A stretch of DNA of 10,100 nt from Thermotogota bacterium (GTDB lineage Bacteria > Bipolaricaulota > Bipolaricaulia > UBA7950 > UBA9294): positions 1 to 10,100 of the forward strand of contig JBDKUT010000075.1 in assembly GCA_039679545.1 (NCBI GenBank), given 5' to 3'. Positions 590 to 10,098 of this stretch are shown piece after piece (position 1 is the first letter of the stretch; each line of letters begins with the position of its first letter). The notes beneath the pieces were generated by a model that had not been told where the DNA came from, searched no databases, and saw nothing but the letters and a program-made list of their open reading frames with translations. Made by a program: the position numbers and the translations under genes.

Positions 590-1813
590 GTGACCGACCT
601 GTTCGAGAAGTGTCGCGCGTTTTTCACCGATCCCGCCTACGCCGAGGCCCTCGGCTATCCGGCGAGTCCCCAGCGTGCCAAGGATCTTGGCGTCTACGCG
701 TTCTTCATTCCACTTGATCAGACCGAAGGAACGGAAGTCACGATTGCCGGGAAGAGGCTCGTCATGCTCGGGTCGAACAACTACCTGGGGCTGACCATGC
801 ACCCCGACGTCCGCCGCGCCGCGCAGGAGGCCGTTCGGTCGTTCGGAACAAGCTGCACGGGCTCCCGCTTTCTGAACGGGACTCTTGCTCTGCACGGAGA
901 ACTGGAGCAGCGGCTCGCGGCCTACGTCGGAAAGGAGAAAGCTCTCGTTTTCACGACGGGATACCAAGCGAACCTCGGCGCGCTGTCCTCACTCGTCGGG
1001 CACGGAGACATCGTGATCTGCGACAAAGAAGATCATGCCAGCATTGTCGACGGATGCCGGCTTTCGCTCGGGAGGATGGTCCGCTTCCGTCACAACGATT
1101 TCGCGGACCTTGATCGCGTTCTCGGGAAGTGTCCGAACGGTGCCGGTCGGCTCGTCGTCGTCGATGGTGTGTTCAGCATGGGGGGTGACATTGCGCTTCT
1201 CCCGGATCTCGTGCGTGTTTGTCGGACTCACGGAGCGCGGTTGATGGTCGACGATGCGCACGGGATCGGTGTTGTCGGAAGAGGGCGGGGAACCTCGGCG
1301 CACTACGGGGTCACGCAGGCGGTGGATCTCATCGTGGGAACGTTCAGCAAGTCGCTCGCCTCGATCGGAGGATTCGTCGCGGGGGACGAGTCGACGATCC
1401 ACTGGATTCAGCACGCGGCGCGCTCGCTGATGTTCAGCGCCAGTCTCCCCGCACCCAACGTCGCGGCTGCTCTGGCGGCGCTTGACGTGATGGAGCGTGA
1501 GCCGGAACGAATCGATCGGGTGAACCGAATCGCCGATCGAATGCGAGACGCCTACCGCGATCTCGGGTTCGACGTCGGCGAGAGTCAAACGCCTATCGTC
1601 CCCATCTTCGTAGGTGACTCCCTCAGAGCGATGCAGGTATGGCGGTCCCTGTTCGACGCCGGCATCTACGTGAATGTGGCGATTCCGCCGGCAGTCCCTC
1701 CGGGCAAGGCCCTGTTGCGGACGAGCTACATGGCCACGCACACCGACGAGCAAATGGAGCGCGTTCTCAACGCTTTCGCGTCGGTCGGGAAGATCCACGG
1801 GCTGATTCCGTAG
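590..1813 (+). CDS. spt: PLP-dependent alpha-oxoamine synthase, serine palmitoyltransferase-like (407 aa)
   Basis: GTG at 590 preceded by GAGGAGG (578-584); the track start at 515 overlaps the SDR and is unlikely. Motifs: GSNNYLGL, GTSCTGSRFLNGT, DHASIVDG, DGVFSM, VDDAHG, GTFSKS (PLP lysine), FSASLP, LLRTSYMATH. GSRFLNGT and GTFSKS match bacterial SPTs as I recall them better than BioF (TFGKA/TLSKA) or Kbl (SVRFICGT, TLGKA). Family is near-certain; serine/acyl specificity is inferred. Confidence 0.8.
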   Translation: MTDLFEKCRAFFTDPAYAEALGYPASPQRAKDLGVYAFFIPLDQTEGTEVTIAGKRLVMLGSNNYLGLTMHPDVRRAAQEAVRSFGTSCTGSRFLNGTLALHGELEQRLAAYVGKEKALVFTTGYQANLGALSSLVGHGDIVICDKEDHASIVDGCRLSLGRMVRFRHNDFADLDRVLGKCPNGAGRLVVVDGVFSMGGDIALLPDLVRVCRTHGARLMVDDAHGIGVVGRGRGTSAHYGVTQAVDLIVGTFSKSLASIGGFVAGDESTIHWIQHAARSLMFSASLPAPNVAAALAALDVMEREPERIDRVNRIADRMRDAYRDLGFDVGESQTPIVPIFVGDSLRAMQVWRSLFDAGIYVNVAIPPAVPPGKALLRTSYMATHTDEQMERVLNAFASVGKIHGLIP

Positions 1814-2640: not shown

Positions 2641-3627
2641 CTATGTTACATCATCCGGGAGGTAGATAGCGAACTTGCACCAAGGATCGCCGTTCAACAC
2701 CGTCTCGATGACCTCAGCTCGCAAGGGCTTTCCGAAGATCACGTCGTACGGCTTCTTGTGAAACGCGGCGCTGCAGTTGCAGAACGTCGCAGGGACTTGC
2801 GTCTCTCCGTTGCGTAGCGACTCGCGTGCCCACGGGCAGTGGCAGTAGAGGTAGGCTTTTTTCTTGGGATCCGCTTCCGCGAGGAACTCGACGGCCATGT
2901 ACGGGATCTTCGCCTCGTAGATCACGTTGCCGATGCGAAGGCCCTGTCGGATCTCCGGGTGAGCCTGCACAAAGGCGATGACCTCGTTCGTAATTGGCTG
3001 GTTAAAGTAGAGGCCCTTCTTGTCGCGGATCTTCTCAAGCTCCGCGATGAACGCGTCACCCTTCTGCGCGAGATAGGCGTCGATTCCTCCAGCAGCTTCG
3101 TAGTTGCTCTTCTCCCCGGCGAACCCCTCGTCGGGCAGGTCGCGCAGTCCGGTTCCGAGGATCTCGGCGCACCGCTTGGGTCCGACACGCTTCTCCAACC
3201 GCTCGACAGCGACGCGCATGGCGCGATGCTTCTCGGTGTTTGGGGTGCCCAGGGGAGGTAAGGCGATCCCGCGGAAGATCCGATCCCGCTCGTCGGTCCC
3301 GAGTTCGCCGGAAAGCTTCGTGAACAGATTTCCAAGGGCTTCGTGACCGTCGATGTACTCGAGGGCCGTGGCGAAGACCTGGTAGTTGCCGGCGAATCGC
3401 CCGCCTCGCGCGATGGTCAAGTACGTCTCCCACGTGTTGGCGTCCTCTTCGATGAGGACCGCCGAGAACGCGTTGACGTCCTTCCTCGTAGCGGACGAAA
3501 GATCGTGTGGAGGCTTTCGCGTCCGGAGGAACGTCTCGAAGCGTTCCACGACCGCGATGGACTCCTCCATTTGCTTCTCGGTGAGCTTGCGTTCGAGCAG
3601 GTAACGGCGGAACCCCTCCCGATCCAT
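2641..3627 (-). CDS. Cys-rich DUF6144/V4R-like protein with a helical N-terminal extension (328 aa)
   Basis: ATG at 3627 (MDREGFRRYL) with AAGGAGG at 3640-3634; the track start at 3774 overlaps the divergent gene. C-terminal YCHCP...TFCNCS...IFGKPLRAEVIETVLNGDPWCKFAI is the pattern I associate with DUF6144/V4R-like domains. Confidence 0.75.
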   Translation of the reverse strand: MDREGFRRYLLERKLTEKQMEESIAVVERFETFLRTRKPPHDLSSATRKDVNAFSAVLIEEDANTWETYLTIARGGRFAGNYQVFATALEYIDGHEALGNLFTKLSGELGTDERDRIFRGIALPPLGTPNTEKHRAMRVAVERLEKRVGPKRCAEILGTGLRDLPDEGFAGEKSNYEAAGGIDAYLAQKGDAFIAELEKIRDKKGLYFNQPITNEVIAFVQAHPEIRQGLRIGNVIYEAKIPYMAVEFLAEADPKKKAYLYCHCPWARESLRNGETQVPATFCNCSAAFHKKPYDVIFGKPLRAEVIETVLNGDPWCKFAIYLPDDVT

Positions 3628-3763: not shown

Positions 3764-4486
3764 ATGTGCCGCATGCTCGTTGCTCCGCTCGGACTGCCAG
3801 GTCACGCTGTCCTCGAGCCGTTTCGGGCGATGGCCCGCGGGGAGAACCTCGCAAGGAGGCACGGCAACACATGGAACCATCCCCACGGTTGGGGAATCGT
3901 CTACCAGGATGACGGCCGGCTTCGCTGCTATCGAAGCGCGCGCCCGTGCTGGGATGACCCAGACTTCGACGCGTTCAAGAAGGCCCGTGTCTTTCTGCTT
4001 CACGCGCGGCGCAAGACAAACGGCGACGTTTCGAGTGAAAACTCGCACCCGTTCTCCCTTGAAGTCGACGGAAGGACGTGGTTCTTCTGTCACAACGGAA
4101 CGGTTCACGATCCGCTTCCACCTCTTCACGAACGTGCTGGCGCGGATTCAACCGATTCGTACCGGCTCTTCTGCAAGCTTGCCGCGGAAGGACTCGGTGG
4201 AAATCCCGGCGCCGCGCTTCGCTCGGTCTACGGACAACTTCGCGACTTCACGTCGCTGAACACGTTCCTCTTCGAGGAACAAGAGTTGTGGGCGGTCTGT
4301 CGGTGGACAAAGGACGAGGCGTACTACACTCTCCATCTTGCGGAGTCGGAGGCCGGCCCGCTCGTCTCATCGGAGCCGCTCGACGGAGTCGACGTGGCGT
4401 GGACTGCCTTAACCAACGGGTCCGTGTTGCGAATCGATCGACGAACCGGCGCGATCGGCCGGCAGGCCCTTTCGGGGTCTTCCTAG
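3764..4486 (+). CDS. Stand-alone class II glutamine amidotransferase (Ntn hydrolase; YafJ/EgtC/Dug3-like) (240 aa)
   Basis: Begins M-C-R-M, giving the N-terminal nucleophile Cys after Met removal, which fixes the start at 3764. Motifs HPHGWG, LLHARR, ENSHPF, FCHNGTV, STDS, LVSSEPL. Confidence 0.92.
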   Translation: MCRMLVAPLGLPGHAVLEPFRAMARGENLARRHGNTWNHPHGWGIVYQDDGRLRCYRSARPCWDDPDFDAFKKARVFLLHARRKTNGDVSSENSHPFSLEVDGRTWFFCHNGTVHDPLPPLHERAGADSTDSYRLFCKLAAEGLGGNPGAALRSVYGQLRDFTSLNTFLFEEQELWAVCRWTKDEAYYTLHLAESEAGPLVSSEPLDGVDVAWTALTNGSVLRIDRRTGAIGRQALSGSS

Positions 4487-4493
4487 GAGGAAT

Positions 4494-5270
4494 GTGGCGC
4501 GCAAGGAACAGGACGAGCCGGCCCTTCCCTACGTGCCCCGAACCTACCGGCGCGACGAATCGGCGCCCTTCGTCCTTTGGACGTCTCCGTGTGAGACGGG
4601 CGAGCACCGCGCATGCCTTCGCTCGTGGGCCTTCGACGCAATGTCCTTCCTATCCGAGGCCCTTGGATTCCGGCCGTCCCGGCGTCTCCACGTCGTCTCG
4701 TTTCGAACGAACGAGGAGGCGCGACTCTCTCTGGGGCGGGAGGTTCCATCGGCGATGGCCCTCGCACCGTACGCGGGAGAGGCTGACTGCTTGGTGGTCG
4801 TTCAGTCGGCGAGCGTTGATTCACGGAACGCTGACCCTGACCGCATGAGAGGAATCCTCGTGCACGAGATGGCCCACCAACTCATCGCAGAGCGGACTGG
4901 GTCGACGAAGCTGTTGGGGGATGGAAATCGATGTGTGAACGTTTCGACGTGGCTGAATGAAGGACTTGCGGAGCTGCTCCGGTTTCAGTTCCTGCACGAC
5001 GCAGCGAGGATCGAGGGCGCTCTCGGCGAGTTCGAGAGGGCGCGAGACATCCTGACCTGGCGGGACGTCGATGGGCTTCTGGATGATCTCGACGCCGACC
5101 GTCGCGCCGAGGCGTTCGTTCGGGCAACCGGGGCCGTGGCGTGGCTCGCTCGCGAAGCCGGAGTCGTAATGCTGTTCGATCGGCTCGCTGTCGTGGATCA
5201 CGCGGTGGCTCCTAACAGCGGCTGTGCGGTGCCGGCTCTCCGACCTGTCCTTCGTCGTCTCTCCGCGTAG
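4494..5270 (+). CDS. Putative gluzincin (clan MA-like) zinc metallopeptidase, probably cytoplasmic (258 aa)
   Basis: LVHEMAHQ (HExxH) followed by WLNEGLAE (third zinc ligand motif). AGGAGG at 4485-4490 overlaps the upstream stop, suggesting translational coupling. No signal peptide seen. Exact start uncertain because the SD spacing is only 3 nt. Confidence 0.75.
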   Translation: MARKEQDEPALPYVPRTYRRDESAPFVLWTSPCETGEHRACLRSWAFDAMSFLSEALGFRPSRRLHVVSFRTNEEARLSLGREVPSAMALAPYAGEADCLVVVQSASVDSRNADPDRMRGILVHEMAHQLIAERTGSTKLLGDGNRCVNVSTWLNEGLAELLRFQFLHDAARIEGALGEFERARDILTWRDVDGLLDDLDADRRAEAFVRATGAVAWLAREAGVVMLFDRLAVVDHAVAPNSGCAVPALRPVLRRLSA

Positions 5271-5310: not shown

Positions 5311-5349
5311 TCTCCAGAACAACCACGATGGGGAACAGAAAGGAGCGGG

Positions 5350-5775
5350 ATGGGTCCGCAGTGGTTCGCTCTCCTGACAGCGGCGGCGTGGGGCATCGGC
5401 GGGTACTTCGAGAAGAAAGGGCTGGCCATCGGAGGCGTGCCCCCGCAGATCGGCATTGTCGTTCGTACGGGGATCGCCTTTCTCCTTCTCGCGGCAGTCA
5501 GCGCGCCACAGTGGCGAACCCTGACGACCGCAAGCCCGAAGTCCCTTCTGTACATTGCCATTGGTGGGGGCGTCCTGGCAGGAGCTGTCGGGATGCTGTG
5601 CTTCTACGTTGCCCTTCGGAACGGATCGCTCGCTCAGGTCATGCCGATCGCCTTTACGTCGCCCCTGTTCGGCGTTCTGCTCGGGATGATCCTTGGCGGC
5701 GAACCCGTTACGGCGCGCGCGATCGGGGGCATGGCGCTCACGGTCGGAGGCATCGCGCTTCTCTCGGTTCGCTAG
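5350..5775 (+). CDS. Single-domain EamA/DMT-family small membrane transporter (141 aa)
   Basis: ATG at 5350 after AAAGGAG. About five hydrophobic helices. ALLTAAAWG, FYVALRNG...VMPIAFTSPLF and GEPVT...IGG are typical EamA motifs. Confidence 0.9.
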   Translation: MGPQWFALLTAAAWGIGGYFEKKGLAIGGVPPQIGIVVRTGIAFLLLAAVSAPQWRTLTTASPKSLLYIAIGGGVLAGAVGMLCFYVALRNGSLAQVMPIAFTSPLFGVLLGMILGGEPVTARAIGGMALTVGGIALLSVR

Positions 5776-5805
5776 ACCTCGTCAAGCGGCAGGTCTCTCG
5801 ACGGC

Positions 5806-5839
5806 AAACACACGGGGCCCCGTGGGGAGCCCCGCGTGT
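5806..5839 (-). terminator. Intrinsic terminator-like hairpin between the convergent EamA and surface-protein genes
   Basis: Arms 5808-5818 (ACACACGGGGC) and 5829-5839 (GCCCCGCGTGT). On the minus-strand RNA the single mismatch becomes a G-U pair and the stem ends in a short UUU. May act bidirectionally. Confidence 0.65.
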
Positions 5840-5867
5840 GCACAGGCTACCGTACGTTCCGGCTCGG

Positions 5868-8800
5868 CTATCGATTCACGAACACGATGCCTTTTGCGGA
5901 GTCGGTGTTGCTCGGGTCGAAGGTGTTCGTCCCGTCCGTTGCCGCAAGGACGTAGATGTAGGCGCCGTTCGCAAGCGCATTGCCATCCTCGTTCACCCCG
6001 GTCCAGATGACTTCCGAGACATTCGCTTCGGTCTTTGCCCACACCGGGTGCCCGGCGAGGTCGTAGATTTCGACGGAGAACGTCGTCGCAATGCCCGAAC
6101 CGTCGTACGCGAAAGCGACTTCGTCGTTGAACGGGTTCGGCCCGGCGTAGAACGACGTGACTTCAAGCTCGCCCGATACGATGACCACCGTGGCCGAACT
6201 CGTATCGGTCGGATCCGTCGGGTCGACGTACGTTGCGGTGATCTCCTCGCCGACGGCTCCGTCGAGCACGATCGGATCCGTGACGAACATGTGGCTCTGG
6301 CTTCCGTACGTCGTGAGGTCGTAGGTGGCGCCGCCAATTGTGACCGCGCCGGACAGAGAGACATCCTGCGTGTGTGAGAGGTCGGTTATCCTCACACGAA
6401 GTGGATCTCCCTGCACGTACGAGTCGACGACGTTGCCCTGGGTGTCGATGAATTCGGTGCATGAGGCCTCGGTCGCCGTGCCGTTGCCACCGATCGAGAC
6501 CTTGATTGAGAGGACGGCCGAGTCGGAGTGGTTCGACGGATCCTGGTAGAAGGCGACGATCGTGTCGCCGGGCAAAACGCCGAGGGTTGGCACACACGTG
6601 TAGACGTCAACGAGGTCGACGCAGATGACGGATATGAAGACTCCGCTTGCCACGTTCGTCTCGAGCAGGTCAAGGGCCGCCCAACGTCCGCTGCGCGGGT
6701 TGAGGACGTAGATCCTCGGCGCGCCGTCGTTCGTGTCGCCCGCGTACGGATTCGGCGAGTTGTTGAAGATGTTCGTGTCGCCGAGCAGCGCGTTGACCGG
6801 GTGCAAGTTGACCCGGTCCGGAGTGCAGTCGAACGCGTTCAGCGGCAGCGGGCCGAACGGGATGTTCTGACCTTCGTCCCAGAAGCCGTCGATTCGCTCG
6901 CGACGGTACAGGTCCTCGTCCTGGTCGTCATCGATGACCTCGAGGAAGACGCAGTCCGAGTTCACGTAGTCCTCGACCTCGTTGCCGTTCCGATCGAGGA
7001 AATGCATCCTCGTCGTCGACCCGTCGTAGACCTGGGTATCGGCGATGGACATCAGATCGTACGAGACGTCGTTCGAGACACGGACTTTGTCGATTCGCGG
7101 GCCCGAGTACGCCGTGTACGTGCTCTCGTCGCCGAGCCCGAACATCCCTTGGTTGTTGTCCACGTAGTCCACGTCGTTGTAGCGAACATAGACGTCGTCC
7201 TCGTTGTACGCTTCGAGTTTCCAGTTGTCGAGGACGAGTTGATAGCCGCCGAGAAGGCCGGCGAGACCGACGCCGAGGGCATCCCACACGGGAAGGAGTT
7301 CCATTCCCGCGTTCGAGAAGAAGATGGACGAGTTCGACGACGTCTCATCGAGGGCCCAGAACTCCCCGTCGTCCTCGTCGTGCGGATTGCAGATGTGGAC
7401 AACGATCTGCTCAGGGCAGCACGCCTCGACGTTGGCGTTCTCGTCGATGACTTGAACGTAGACCGCGTCGCGACCGAGCCAGTACTCGCTCTTCTCCATG
7501 CGGGTCGCGTCAGTGAAGTTCGTTTGCGAAGTCTTGGCCTTCGAGCCGATGTACGCCACGGCCAGCTTGAAGTCATCTTCGTCGTTCGGGTCGAGGTAGT
7601 AGGCAACGAGCGTGTCGTTCCCATTCAGGCTGTTGAATCCGAGGTCGGCGAGGATCGAGTTGAGCTTGAGCTCGAAAATTCCCGTGTCCACGCCCGTTTC
7701 GCGAGCGTAGAACGAAATGGCCGTCACGCCGTTCGCACTCACCGTGTCGAACAGCGATCCGTGGTCCTCAAGGTCGAACACCCCAAGCTTCGGGTAGTGA
7801 ATGTAGTAGCGACCGTCTTTCGCTCCAGTCGTTCCGTAGTCGTTTTTCTCCGCGTTGTAGATGTTGAACCAGCGGATCGGCCGGTTGGTGTCGTCCACAG
7901 CCGGCGGCACGGGCGTTGCCGGCAGCGCCGGGTCTTGCGGGGTCAGGTAGTTGCCAGCGATGCCTCCCGTGCGCTTGAGCATGCAAAAGTTCGTCGCGTT
8001 GTTGCCGGTTTGCTTCTCGTCATCGTCGGGTGAGTTGGCCGGGTTCCACGACCCGGGGTTCACGATGATGAACACCGGCACGTACTCGACGCGGTTGCAG
8101 TTTAGGTTCTCATCGGCGTCGACGACGCGGATCGTTGCGGCCTCGTTTCCGTCCTTGTAGATGACGGTGTCGCCCCGCGAGCTCGTGGAGTCCCATGCGA
8201 TCGTTGCCTCCGTGTCGATGATCTTCATCATCGCGACCGCGACGTCGGTTTCCTCGTTTGGGTCCTGAACCATGCCGATCAGCGTATCCATGTTCTCGAA
8301 CCGGCCGATCAGCCACTCGGTTGGGGAGGTGGTGCGGTTCGAGTTCAGCTCGGACGGGAGAGCCCACTTCCAGGAATCCAGAGCGATGAGCCCTGTCTCG
8401 AACCCCGTTGAGTTGCCGGGGAGGTTGCCGACCCAGTAGAGTACGTCGCCGTCCGCGTTGTTTCCGCCCTTCGTCTCGTTGTGAACGTCCAGGAACGAGT
8501 AGTTGCCCCACTGGAACGACGTGCCCATGGTGGCGGAGGTCTTCGCGGCGAGGGGAGCGGCCCCTGCGGGTACGTCAACGACGTGCGTCCCCTTCCACAG
8601 CTCGCTCGCCCCGAAGCTCTCCCTGGTGCCGATCTGGAACGGGTGACTGCTCACGAAGACGCTCGTGTTGGCGCCGGTCTCCTCCAGGTAGTCCCCGTCG
8701 AGCCATCCCGGATTCCCGGGGTAGTGTCCCTTGTACGGAACGTAGCCGTCCTCGTCGTACCTCTTGCCGGCCGGGCTCCCCGTCTCGTTGACGTAGCTTA

Positions 8801-9053
8801 TCCACATGATGTAGGCGCCTGTCTTTGGGTCCATCAGCTTGACGTCGGTCCAGAACTTGTCTCGGACGTCGCAGTCGATGTTCTCGTCCGGATCGTAGAC
8901 GCAGATCCAGACCTCCGCTCCTTCCTGAACGTTCGTGACGCGGGTTCCGCCGTCTTGATCGGACGAGAAGTACATCTCGGCCGTGCTCGCGGCGAGCGGA
9001 AGAACCGCCAAGGTCACGACAACCCAAGCCAGCACTAACCCTCTACGCACCAT
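5868..9053 (-). CDS. Large secreted acidic repeat protein (1061 aa), S-layer/surface-protein-like, with C-terminal FlgD-Ig/T9SS-CTD-like domain
   Basis: ATG at 9053 after GAAGGAAGGGG. Sec-type signal peptide MVRRGLVLAWVVVTLAVLPLAASTA. Asp/Asn/Thr-rich with recurring V.D.D.N, L.ET...sgvF and Y.DP....D motifs. The last ~100 aa read GPNPFN...VEIYDLAGHPV...WTGVNEDGNALANGAYIY...KGIVFVNR. Confidence 0.85.
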   Translation of the reverse strand: MVRRGLVLAWVVVTLAVLPLAASTAEMYFSSDQDGGTRVTNVQEGAEVWICVYDPDENIDCDVRDKFWTDVKLMDPKTGAYIMWISYVNETGSPAGKRYDEDGYVPYKGHYPGNPGWLDGDYLEETGANTSVFVSSHPFQIGTRESFGASELWKGTHVVDVPAGAAPLAAKTSATMGTSFQWGNYSFLDVHNETKGGNNADGDVLYWVGNLPGNSTGFETGLIALDSWKWALPSELNSNRTTSPTEWLIGRFENMDTLIGMVQDPNEETDVAVAMMKIIDTEATIAWDSTSSRGDTVIYKDGNEAATIRVVDADENLNCNRVEYVPVFIIVNPGSWNPANSPDDDEKQTGNNATNFCMLKRTGGIAGNYLTPQDPALPATPVPPAVDDTNRPIRWFNIYNAEKNDYGTTGAKDGRYYIHYPKLGVFDLEDHGSLFDTVSANGVTAISFYARETGVDTGIFELKLNSILADLGFNSLNGNDTLVAYYLDPNDEDDFKLAVAYIGSKAKTSQTNFTDATRMEKSEYWLGRDAVYVQVIDENANVEACCPEQIVVHICNPHDEDDGEFWALDETSSNSSIFFSNAGMELLPVWDALGVGLAGLLGGYQLVLDNWKLEAYNEDDVYVRYNDVDYVDNNQGMFGLGDESTYTAYSGPRIDKVRVSNDVSYDLMSIADTQVYDGSTTRMHFLDRNGNEVEDYVNSDCVFLEVIDDDQDEDLYRRERIDGFWDEGQNIPFGPLPLNAFDCTPDRVNLHPVNALLGDTNIFNNSPNPYAGDTNDGAPRIYVLNPRSGRWAALDLLETNVASGVFISVICVDLVDVYTCVPTLGVLPGDTIVAFYQDPSNHSDSAVLSIKVSIGGNGTATEASCTEFIDTQGNVVDSYVQGDPLRVRITDLSHTQDVSLSGAVTIGGATYDLTTYGSQSHMFVTDPIVLDGAVGEEITATYVDPTDPTDTSSATVVIVSGELEVTSFYAGPNPFNDEVAFAYDGSGIATTFSVEIYDLAGHPVWAKTEANVSEVIWTGVNEDGNALANGAYIYVLAATDGTNTFDPSNTDSAKGIVFVNR
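6180..8980 (-). repeat. About five degenerate protein-level repeats (probably Ig-like beta-sandwiches) in the surface protein
   Basis: Approximate units: R1 8980-8215 (VYDPDEN / LEETGANTSVF / VQDPNEETD), R2 8210-7550 (VVDADEN / RETGVDTGIF / YLDPNDEDD), R3 7535-7040 (VIDENAN / LDETSSNSSIF / VRYND), R4 7020-6490 (VIDDDQD / LLETNVASGVF / YQDPSNHSD), R5 6465-6180 (ITDLSH / YVDPTDPTD). Not evident as DNA repeats. Confidence 0.7.
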
Positions 9054-9126
9054 GGCTTGCCCCTTCCTTCTCACGCAGACGTACCTCGACGCGGAATCCC
9101 CTTGCGCCGAACGTTGGACTGTCACC

Positions 9127-9155
9127 AAGGTAGGCTCCGCAAACGACGGTGTCAA
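9127..9155 (-). promoter_or_regulatory. Sigma70-type promoter of the surface-protein gene: TTGACA-N17-TACCTT
   Basis: Minus strand: consensus -35 TTGACA (9155-9150), exactly 17 nt, -10 TACCTT (9132-9127). Predicted start near 9120, about 67 nt before the ATG. Confidence 0.7.
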
Positions 9156-9249
9156 GTCATCTTGCACGCTACGAACGCGACGCCCGTCCTGAGGAATCCG
9201 CGTGGAGCCGGGCTTGAGCGAAAGCACCGTAGAGAAATGCGGGAGACGC

Positions 9250-10098
9250 CTAGCGCGGAGGGCTGAAACGGATGACGACGATGTCTCCGTCTTGGATCTT
9301 GTAATCGCGCCCCTCGAGGCGGCGCTTGCCAGCTTTGGCCGCCGCGGCCTCGGATCCACACTCGATCAGATCTTCGTACGCGATGACTTCCATGCGGATG
9401 AACCCACGCTCCATGTCGGTGTGGATCTTCCCCGCCGCGGCGGGGGCTTTGTCGCCGCGCCGGCACGTCCACACGTGGACCTCCTTCTCGCCCGCCGTGA
9501 AGAAGTCCACGAGTCCAAGCTTGCGATAAGCGGCGCGGATCAGCCGGTCGATCGACAACTCGGCGACGCCGAGCTCGGCAAGGAAGGGGCCTCGGTCTTC
9601 CGGCGGGAGTTCACTGATGTCGGCCTCTTCGCGCCCACAGATGGAAATGACTTCGCTTCCCTCCGCTGACGCCCGCTCGCGGAGGGCGGCTGCGCCGGGT
9701 CCGTCTGCGTCTCGCGGGAAGAGGAGGTTGGCCACGTAGAGAACGGGCTTTTGTGACATGAGGTTGCAGTCCGCGACGCTTGCCTGCTCGACCTCGGTCA
9801 GCCCCTGGTTTCGCGCGGGGATGCCCGCGTGAAGGTCTCGGAGCACCTTCTCGCAGTCTTCGGATTCGCGAACCGCAAACTTGTCTCCGATTCGGACCCG
9901 CTTGACGAGTCGTGCGATCTTCCGCTCGACGGTCTGCGCGTCGGCCACCATCAGCTCGAGGTCGACCGTCTCGACGTCGTGGAGCGGACTCGGCGGGTGT
10001 TCAGGAGCCGCGAAGCAACGGACGACGTGGATCAGAGCGTCCGCCTCCTTGATGTGGGTGAGAAGGCGCGACCCGCGTCCTCCTTCCGCGGTCGATCC
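9250..10098 (-). CDS. ychF: Redox-regulated ATPase YchF (Obg family), 5'-truncated
   Basis: Frame is open to the window edge: GSTAEGGRGSRLLTHIKEADALIHVVRCF...VDLELMVAD, then KPVLYVAN and the TGS-like C-terminus FFTAGEKEVHVWT...APAAAGKIHTDMERGFIRMEV...RLEGRDYKIQDGD. Confidence 0.95.
   Translation of the reverse strand, partial: GSTAEGGRGSRLLTHIKEADALIHVVRCFAAPEHPPSPLHDVETVDLELMVADAQTVERKIARLVKRVRIGDKFAVRESEDCEKVLRDLHAGIPARNQGLTEVEQASVADCNLMSQKPVLYVANLLFPRDADGPGAAALRERASAEGSEVISICGREEADISELPPEDRGPFLAELGVAELSIDRLIRAAYRKLGLVDFFTAGEKEVHVWTCRRGDKAPAAAGKIHTDMERGFIRMEVIAYEDLIECGSEAAAAKAGKRRLEGRDYKIQDGDIVVIRFSPPR

Follow-up and report, generated by a model that had tools for sequence, protein, structure and literature searches.

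The stretch of DNA analysed here (the window, 10,100 nucleotides) is the whole of contig C75 of genome G000, an assembly of 2.35 Mb in 163 contigs with 65% G+C, 93.6% completeness and 3.6% contamination. Its minus strand encodes an exported protein of 1061 amino acids (P0001) that ends in a C-terminal domain (CTD) resembling the sorting signals of the T9SS (type IX secretion system), and this domain and its likely export route are our subject. The gene, its parts and its upstream neighbour lie as follows.

5868..9053, minus strand: gene for the exported all-beta protein P0001 (1061 aa), with signal peptide, acidic immunoglobulin (Ig)-like array and T9SS-type CTD; candidate surface-layer (S-layer) or coat protein
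9060..9070, minus strand: Shine-Dalgarno-like sequence GAAGGAAGGGG, 6 nt ahead of the ATG
8982..9053, minus strand: Sec-type signal peptide, residues 1-24, judged by eye and from the family alignment
6174..8981, minus strand: mature body, about five Ig-like domains
5868..6173, minus strand: type A-like CTD, residues 961-1061 plus stop, of PorU/PorZ architecture, with an extra hairpin after strand 5 (WTGVNEDGNALANG)
6129..6140, minus strand: PNPF motif, preceded by G; part of the predicted interface with a PorV-like barrel
6051..6068, minus strand: IYDLAG motif, part of the predicted interface
5952..6005, minus strand: WTG...G..LANGAYIY, in which LANG makes the lowest-error predicted contacts with the N-terminal segment of the barrel
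5868..5894, minus strand: terminal strand KGIVFVNR-stop
9250..10098, minus strand: ychF, 5' end beyond the contig edge; serves as taxonomic marker, is kept as upstream neighbour across the genus and does not belong to the export system

All the motifs singled out by an earlier sequence-only reading (PNPF, IYDLAG, W-x-G...LANG-x-YIY and a terminal K-strand) are found in the last 101 residues of the protein. Scored as that reading had proposed, the isolated 105-aa tail passes TIGR04183 (27.0 bits, cut-off 23; 22.9 bits for the whole protein) and the FlgD_ig model PF13860 (28.4 bits); it also passes the CHU_C model PF13585 (32.2 bits; cut-offs 27 for both Pfam models) and stays under the cut-off of PF18962 (23.8 bits, cut-off 27). 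Its best NCBIfam E-values fall on the C-termini of PorU and PorZ. We infer that IYDLAG is the equivalent of the conserved glycine motif in the loop between strands beta3 and beta4. The terminal-strand consensus of type A CTDs is K...K; here the strand follows K-G-x-V-F-I-N-R, unlike that of typical Bacteroidota type A CTDs, and ends in the family such as GKGTVFINR also differ from the GRLVIxR end of protease-type CTDs. In an AlphaFold2 model of the protein (117 sequences, pLDDT 89.3, pTM 0.79) the tail is a seven-stranded Ig-like beta-sandwich that aligns to the CTDs of PorU (Z 11.2, root-mean-square deviation (rmsd) 3.2, 93 residues aligned), mirolase (Z 9.9, rmsd 1.8, 78 aligned), PorZ (Z 9.5, rmsd 2.9, 87 aligned) and NucA (Z 9.1). 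Unrelated Ig folds come close behind, the Ig domains of glycosidases reaching Z 9.4-9.5, so the fold alone is not decisive for identity as a CTD. No promoter- or terminator-like site was found in window positions 5700-9400.

The host belongs to a phylum remote from the lineages known for the T9SS. Nine relatives among the 120 YchF matches listed carry organism names, and seven of these, being the first seven, are Bipolaricaulota; for the 1061-aa protein, Bipolaricaulota account for 10 of the 11 organism-named sequences among the 120 homologues listed, the remaining one being labelled 'archaeon'. The adjacency of ychF and the 1061-aa gene is kept in three genomes of the same genus. By these sequence relationships the host is a member of the Bipolaricaulota, as had tentatively been suggested, and thus belongs neither to the Bacteroidota nor to the wider Fibrobacterota-Chlorobiota-Bacteroidota (FCB) group; ordinary cargo of an FCB organism with a complete T9SS is not what was found. 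An outer membrane in the host may be taken from the presence of Omp85 in G000 together with cryo-electron microscopy of a cultured member of the phylum, strain J31 (10.1101/2025.11.21.689855).

Nor is the domain confined to one protein or internal in its homologues. With a local profile we found five complete genes for CTD proteins in G000, and the CTD comes last in each. They encode the 1061-aa protein, its full paralogue on C18, and proteins of S8 protease (C21), PKD (C2) and vWA (C105) type. This list, which the sequence-only reading had called for, comprises unrelated exported bodies, some with PorV-like or SprA-like neighbours. Among the 120 listed homologues of the 1061-aa protein the CTD is terminal in 118; one lacks it, and in one it stops 14 residues short of an atypical end. 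Three further 5' ends of the family run into contig ends (C131, C153 and C155) in G000. In the phylum, which we surveyed in 149 genomes at least 80% complete (71 of them high-quality), the family is present in 105 by any match, CTD-only matches included, and long matches occur chiefly in the phylum families f1 and f3. Two side observations concern the CTD genes themselves. The vWA-CTD gene (L004:5199-11120) is an outlier in codon usage, ranking 1433 of 1442, and adjoins a barrel gene of its own, as if the two had been gained as a cassette. A barrel-linked paralogue in genome G116 (L115:1201-2562) ends in TDSAKGLVFINR, near-identical to window positions 5868-5910 (TDSAKGIVFVNR), while the bodies are only about 60% alike, which suggests from the sequences that CTD ends may be exchanged between paralogues.

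A weak match to TIGR04189 in G000 pointed to a run of three genes on contig C21, namely the S8 protease with CTD, a 282-aa barrel and a 1329-aa SprA-like protein, the first two overlapping by GTGA. The profile of the SprA-like family matches Flavobacterium johnsoniae SprA (E 4.9e-7). We modelled the last 1200 residues of a G019 homologue that shares 26% identity with the protein of G000 (pLDDT 88.7), and the four best Foldseek matches of the model are SprA structures (E 7e-20 to 1e-12, TMq 0.41-0.49), with propellers behind; a wide VIA search of the same model returned propellers throughout, so the barrel was not probed by VIA. The secondary-structure list gives about 37 long strands outside a propeller at residues 481-754, and the SprA barrel is described as having 36 (PMC10994853). 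The modelled protein is a shorter chain but probably not a narrower barrel, and we regard it as a relative of SprA but not an equivalog. The propeller inserted in this protein (L041:6925-10524) resembles those of two-component sensors and of PorZ.

The SprA-like gene is present, mostly in single copy, in 141 of the 149 genomes of the phylum and in 70 of the 71 high-quality ones, and all 14 organism-named homologues are Bipolaricaulota proteins annotated 'hypothetical protein'. Gene order was counted at 41 loci chosen to span the families of the phylum; related loci are not independent, and the pattern spans several families. The order CTD gene, barrel gene, SprA-like gene holds in 34 of the 41, with an S8 protease bearing the CTD as fixed first gene of the operon; two loci end after the barrel gene and five lack the order. 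Around the SprA-like gene no further conserved membrane gene appeared at these loci, only housekeeping genes (the next commonest, FtsH-like, in 14 of 41). At two loci (L051:12085-16206 and L052:3323-7508) tandem cargo-barrel-cargo-barrel arrays encoding CTD proteins of about 350 aa converge on the SprA-like gene. The N-terminal profile of the SprA-like family recovers 2595 representatives at E <=0.001. Three relatives of SprA (P0291, P0301 and P0340; 1330-1812 aa), among 20 distant ones, come from clusters named Bacillota (1330 aa), Aerophobetes and Elusimicrobiaceae, and TIGR04189 also matches weakly in Thermus thermophilus.

The small barrels are related to PorV. The 282-aa barrel of C21 scores 34.6 bits on the PorV/PorQ family NF033709 (cut-off 90), and the small-barrel profile aligns end to end with F. 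johnsoniae PorV (E 4e-7). Their genes follow CTD genes strictly: all 47 PorV-like genes with room upstream lie directly behind one. The family of the 1061-aa protein has a barrel class of its own, the third, which NF033709 matches along its length with 75.5 bits and which has matches in 80 of the 149 genomes. Its gene stands directly behind a gene of the 1061-aa family in the single-contig genomes G004 and G005 and in 22 of 24 third-class loci (from the best 30 loci, the 6 that end less than 300 nt upstream being dropped). Viewed from the cargo side, 7 of 20 loci of the family carry a third-class barrel gene, 4 of these having been chosen for it. In G000 two third-class 3' ends lie at the ends of contigs C147 and C56 and share 127 identical bases; with the family and barrel gene ends placed at contig ends in this way, the cargo-barrel units of this genome are collapsed repeats in the assembly.

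The window CTD is predicted to bind such a barrel. Paired with the third-class barrel of G116, from the same genus, it gives a predicted-complex score of 0.89, against 0.00 for the best of three controls; of 157 solved pairs 116 reach the mark used for this score, as do 2 of 215 mismatched ones, and the mark is roughly valid with the alignments used. The prediction runs agree in at least 98% of contacts, with a partner pLDDT of at least 90. On the CTD side the modelled interface consists of PNP, YDLAG, LANG and the last strand, so that the window CTD would bind the family-linked PorV-like barrel through the very motifs named in the sequence-only reading.

Other T9SS parts are harder to find. 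GldM (TIGR03517, PF12081), GldN (TIGR03523) and GldL_N (PF22827) are over cut-off in none of the 149 genomes, with the positive control likewise blank, and GldL (TIGR03513) is over cut-off in none of 5 genomes; weak matches below cut-off reach E 0.06-0.08 for GldL and E 0.001 for GldM_1st. The controls were five Calditrichota genomes (G149-G153; loci L140, L143, L145, L146 and L151), which yielded neither GldM nor GldN although each encodes SprA at full length (816 bits); beyond the Bacteroidota, T9SS cores with no motor or a divergent one may be common. MotA/ExbB occurs in 1 of the 149 genomes of the phylum, in a search positive in 9 of 14 controls. C25 peptidases (PF01364, the peptidase family of PorU) are sporadic, in 5 of 149 genomes (loci L079 and L084-L088), and were not found in G000 or in the single-contig genomes G004 and G005. 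LpxC and flagellin were each found in 0 of 5 genomes, by searches positive in 4 of 14 controls. Of the components that the sequence-only reading had proposed to look for, those covered here were porL/M/N, sprA, porU and porV; the search recovered SprA-like and PorV-like proteins and neither a PorU-type peptidase nor GldL/M/N, the control for the motor having failed.

Taken together, these data lead us to propose, with some confidence, that the CTD is of type IX type and acts both as export tag and as lasting anchor in a SprA/PorV route of reduced form, whose genes occur across the Bipolaricaulota. Sec would bring the protein into the periplasm, where it would fold. The CTD would then enter the pore of the 1.3-kaa SprA-like barrel and bind a PorV-like barrel docked at its side, and cargo and barrel would leave as a pair. 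With no sortase and no lipopolysaccharide (LPS) for attachment, the CTD would stay uncleaved and the cargo would be held on the surface by its barrel, much as PorV retains PorU and PorQ retains PorZ. The family of the 1061-aa protein would use its own barrel class, encoded behind one paralogue, and the orphan copy in the window would share it in trans. Release, the weakest step, would proceed without a GldKLMN motor; tight binding in a one-to-one ratio, together with assembly of the lattice, might supply the drive. Two precedents fit this scheme: the PorU and PorZ CTDs, the best matches of the window CTD, are described as staying uncleaved (PMC11285876), and type B CTDs offer a carrier precedent in cognate shuttles encoded downstream (PMC12618676).

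Several points weigh against this proposal. The SprA-like protein of C21 reaches only 23.5 bits on the SprA model (cut-off 200), and the PorV-like proteins (34.6-75.5 of 90) are also under their curated cut-off. The window copy is an orphan paralogue with no adjoining barrel gene, and 13 of the 20 family loci, window orthologues behind ychF included, are in the same position. The barrel in the modelled complex is a stand-in from another species (G116), and the pass may reflect likeness to the solved SprA-PorV-CTD structures. The extra hairpin of PorU and PorZ does not by itself settle cleavage, as noted in PMC11285876. The energy step is the weak point, because loss of the motor in F. johnsoniae is reported to trap cargo on the translocon (PMC10994853), and since the motor profiles are blank in Calditrichota that do bear SprA, absence of the motor from the Bipolaricaulota is not established.

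The readings that compete with this one differ in how much of it they dispute. If the contig were a mis-binned piece of an FCB organism, the T9SS would be an ordinary one; fragmentation into 163 contigs and 3.6% contamination leave room for such an error, but the nearest named relatives of both YchF and the 1061-aa protein are Bipolaricaulota, the synteny with ychF recurs in three same-genus genomes and the protein family is present in both single-contig genomes, so that we consider mis-binning ruled out for practical purposes. The domain could also be an FlgD-type Ig domain of the generic kind, structural in role and without a part in targeting, given that it passes PF13860 and that glycosidase Ig domains come near the CTD matches (Z 9.4-9.5). 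This we hold to be very improbable: the domain ends the protein in 118 of 120 homologues and in all 79 CTD matches of the loci examined (some of which overlap), it is fused to bodies as unrelated as S8, PKD and vWA, its genes are strictly linked to those of PorV-like barrels, and flagellin was not found in 5 genomes by a search that works in 4 of 14 controls. A flagellar role we reject, with flagellin in 0 of 5 genomes and MotA/ExbB in 1 of 149.

Closer to our proposal, the CTD and its barrel could form an anchor only, at the periplasmic face or after some other export step, with the SprA-like protein doing something else. That protein falls short of SprA by about 1000 residues and has a propeller resembling those of two-component sensors, five of the 41 loci have no barrel gene before it, and in the model the CTD may sit on either side of the barrel. 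On the other hand, SprA heads the structural matches over the barrel, the SprA-like gene is co-transcribed with barrel and CTD cargo in most loci, and the solved translocon has the CTD bound to PorV within SprA (PMC10994853); an anchor alone therefore seems to us distinctly unlikely. Somewhat less unlikely, though still a minority possibility, is that the same tag and pore draw their energy from an inner-membrane module whose divergence hides it from detection, with the CTD perhaps cleaved, for example by the S8 protease. The route would then be a full T9SS with replaced parts, the S8 protease standing in for PorU. Relatives of SprA and PorV are far below cut-off here, so GldL/M/N could escape detection too; the same models are blank in the five Calditrichota genomes with full-length SprA, the S8 protease with CTD consistently leads the operon (34 of 41 loci), and motor dependence is established in the Bacteroidota (PMC10994853). 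Against a hidden motor, nothing but housekeeping genes is otherwise conserved near the SprA-like gene, 148 of 149 genomes have no gene of the MotA/ExbB/TolQ family, and the pairing of each cargo gene with a single barrel gene speaks for a retained carrier, as is argued for the type B CTD shuttles (PMC12618676).

What the protein would do on the surface is a separate question. The body of the 1061-aa protein is all-beta, with four ET-x-x-N/D-T/S-x-x-F motifs as well as D-x-D-x-N motifs and a mature net charge of -104. The top four Foldseek matches are entries of the S-layer protein of Nitrosopumilus maritimus (NmSLP; E 3.8e-23 to 1.4e-17, the following match at 5e-11), and VIA places 8c8k first (Z 12.5, rmsd 6.7, 228 aligned, 20% identity). 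In the atlas the closest cluster consists mostly of Nitrososphaerota (0.95) and the nearest named family is PF28202, SlaA-like, at 0.82 on 16% of members, these values being uncalibrated and for part of the protein. Like NmSLP (PDB 8C8K/8C8M; PMC11153153), its best structural match, the protein is an acidic tandem Ig-like array; it differs in having about five domains in the body rather than ten, in being bacterial and in ending in a CTD. Strain J31 is reported to have a hexagonal surface layer of 6.25 nm spacing (10.1101/2025.11.21.689855). We estimate that the chances are roughly even that the modelled protein is a coat or S-layer subunit. A number of results tell against this role. Whole-chain TM-scores to NmSLP are low (0.13-0.18), and neither the family profile nor residues 500-860 gave a sequence match to it. 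Codon usage of the window gene is unremarkable (rank 501 of 1442), in a genome where codon adaptation is uninformative, EF-G itself ranking 862 of 1442. Full-length members of the family were not found in several families of the phylum, for example f6. The 6.25 nm spacing looks small for a 113-kDa subunit, and since the toga of Thermotoga is described as a hexagonal porin array of 9.8 nm, the J31 lattice may consist of porins.

Among known systems, the route resembles the T9SS translocon core, and departs from the T9SS in its host, sortase and LPS attachment. With the F. johnsoniae translocon (PDB 6H3I, 8GL6, 8GL8; PMC10994853) it shares the Sec signal, the terminal Ig-like CTD, a giant SprA-related barrel and a small PorV-related barrel predicted to bind the CTD. 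However, F. johnsoniae SprA has about 2400 aa, whereas the Bipolaricaulota protein has about 1330 with an inserted beta-propeller; the small barrels of the Bipolaricaulota (250-300 aa) fall into several classes, each encoded behind its cargo gene, in contrast to a single shared PorV; and F. johnsoniae has GldL/M/N, none of which was detected in Bipolaricaulota by a search whose positive control failed. In the attachment complex of Porphyromonas gingivalis, the PorU-PorV and PorZ-PorQ pairs (PDB 6ZA2, 5M11) provide the closest CTD fold, including the extra hairpin after strand 5 (described in PMC11285876), and their CTDs are kept after secretion, but the window cargo is neither a sortase nor an LPS-delivery protein and its genome lacks a detected PorU-type C25 peptidase or LpxC. 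Type B CTD/PorP-SprF pairs are described as having the carrier gene directly downstream and as allowing an orphan cargo to share a distant carrier (PMC12618676); the window CTD differs in its type A-like fold, and its predicted carrier is PorV/PorQ-like rather than PorP-like. The FlgD Ig-like domain shares the W-x-G...G motif and the Pfam model PF13860, whose cut-off the window domain passes, but the window domain sits terminally on unrelated exported proteins in a phylum with flagellin in 0 of 5 genomes and a MotA-type stator in 1 of 149.

The remaining genes of the window are as follows.

1-549 and 590-1813, plus strand: a short-chain reductase followed by a class II pyridoxal phosphate-dependent acyltransferase (LGSNNYLGL, GTFSKSLAS), as we take them to be; the pair presumably resembles ketosphinganine reductase and serine palmitoyltransferase and may be a sphingolipid locus in an LPS-less diderm
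1829-2563: PrsW-family protease (PF13367), no link to the CTD system
2641-3627: weakly ATC_hydrolase-like protein, no link
3764-4486: class II glutamine amidotransferase, no link
4494-5270: HExxH protein with no Pfam match, no link
5340-5775: small membrane protein, presumably EamA-like, no link

Elsewhere in G000, the small contigs C61, C96, C139 and C4 top the codon-index list with phage-like or atypical genes, and may be prophage or contamination; we assume that genes on some of them are tail-sheath-like.

The sequence-only reading had supposed that, in a host without T9SS, the domain might be tag or anchor for an undescribed route. The behaviour of a tag or anchor fits, but T9SS parts are present: with a SprA-like gene and PorV-like barrels in the host, the route would be a reduced relative of the T9SS, not an unrelated pathway. 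The domain label is already in databases, several homologues at NCBI being named 'T9SS type A sorting domain-containing protein'; the export route is new to them. Our literature search, whose coverage leaves out most subscription journals, found no paper on T9SS parts in Bipolaricaulota, and the main text of the J31 preprint has no mention of 'T9SS' or 'secretion' (10.1101/2025.11.21.689855). Reviews up to 2026 describe the T9SS as confined to Bacteroidota or the FCB group, and species without T9SS genes are stated to be devoid of CTD proteins (PMC11285876). A wider hypothesis, which we offer tentatively and consider doubtful as a whole, is that the Bipolaricaulota carry an S-layer of Nitrosopumilus type, exported folded and motor-free through SprA/PorV and held through its uncleaved CTD by an outer-membrane barrel of its own, and that this three-part core, for which relatives in Bacillota, Aerophobetes, Elusimicrobiota and Calditrichota can be cited, is an older form of type IX secretion to which the Bacteroidota later added motor and sortase. 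In this phylum, which stands next to Thermotogota, a SprA/PorV/CTD core that is close to universal would broaden the range of the T9SS and account for the 'T9SS sorting domain' labels, numbering in the thousands, that occur in genomes supposed to be T9SS-free. It would also offer a small natural system for asking whether the motor is needed for release of cargo from the translocon, and it names a candidate protein, and a mechanism of anchoring, for the S-layer on the first cultured member of the phylum.

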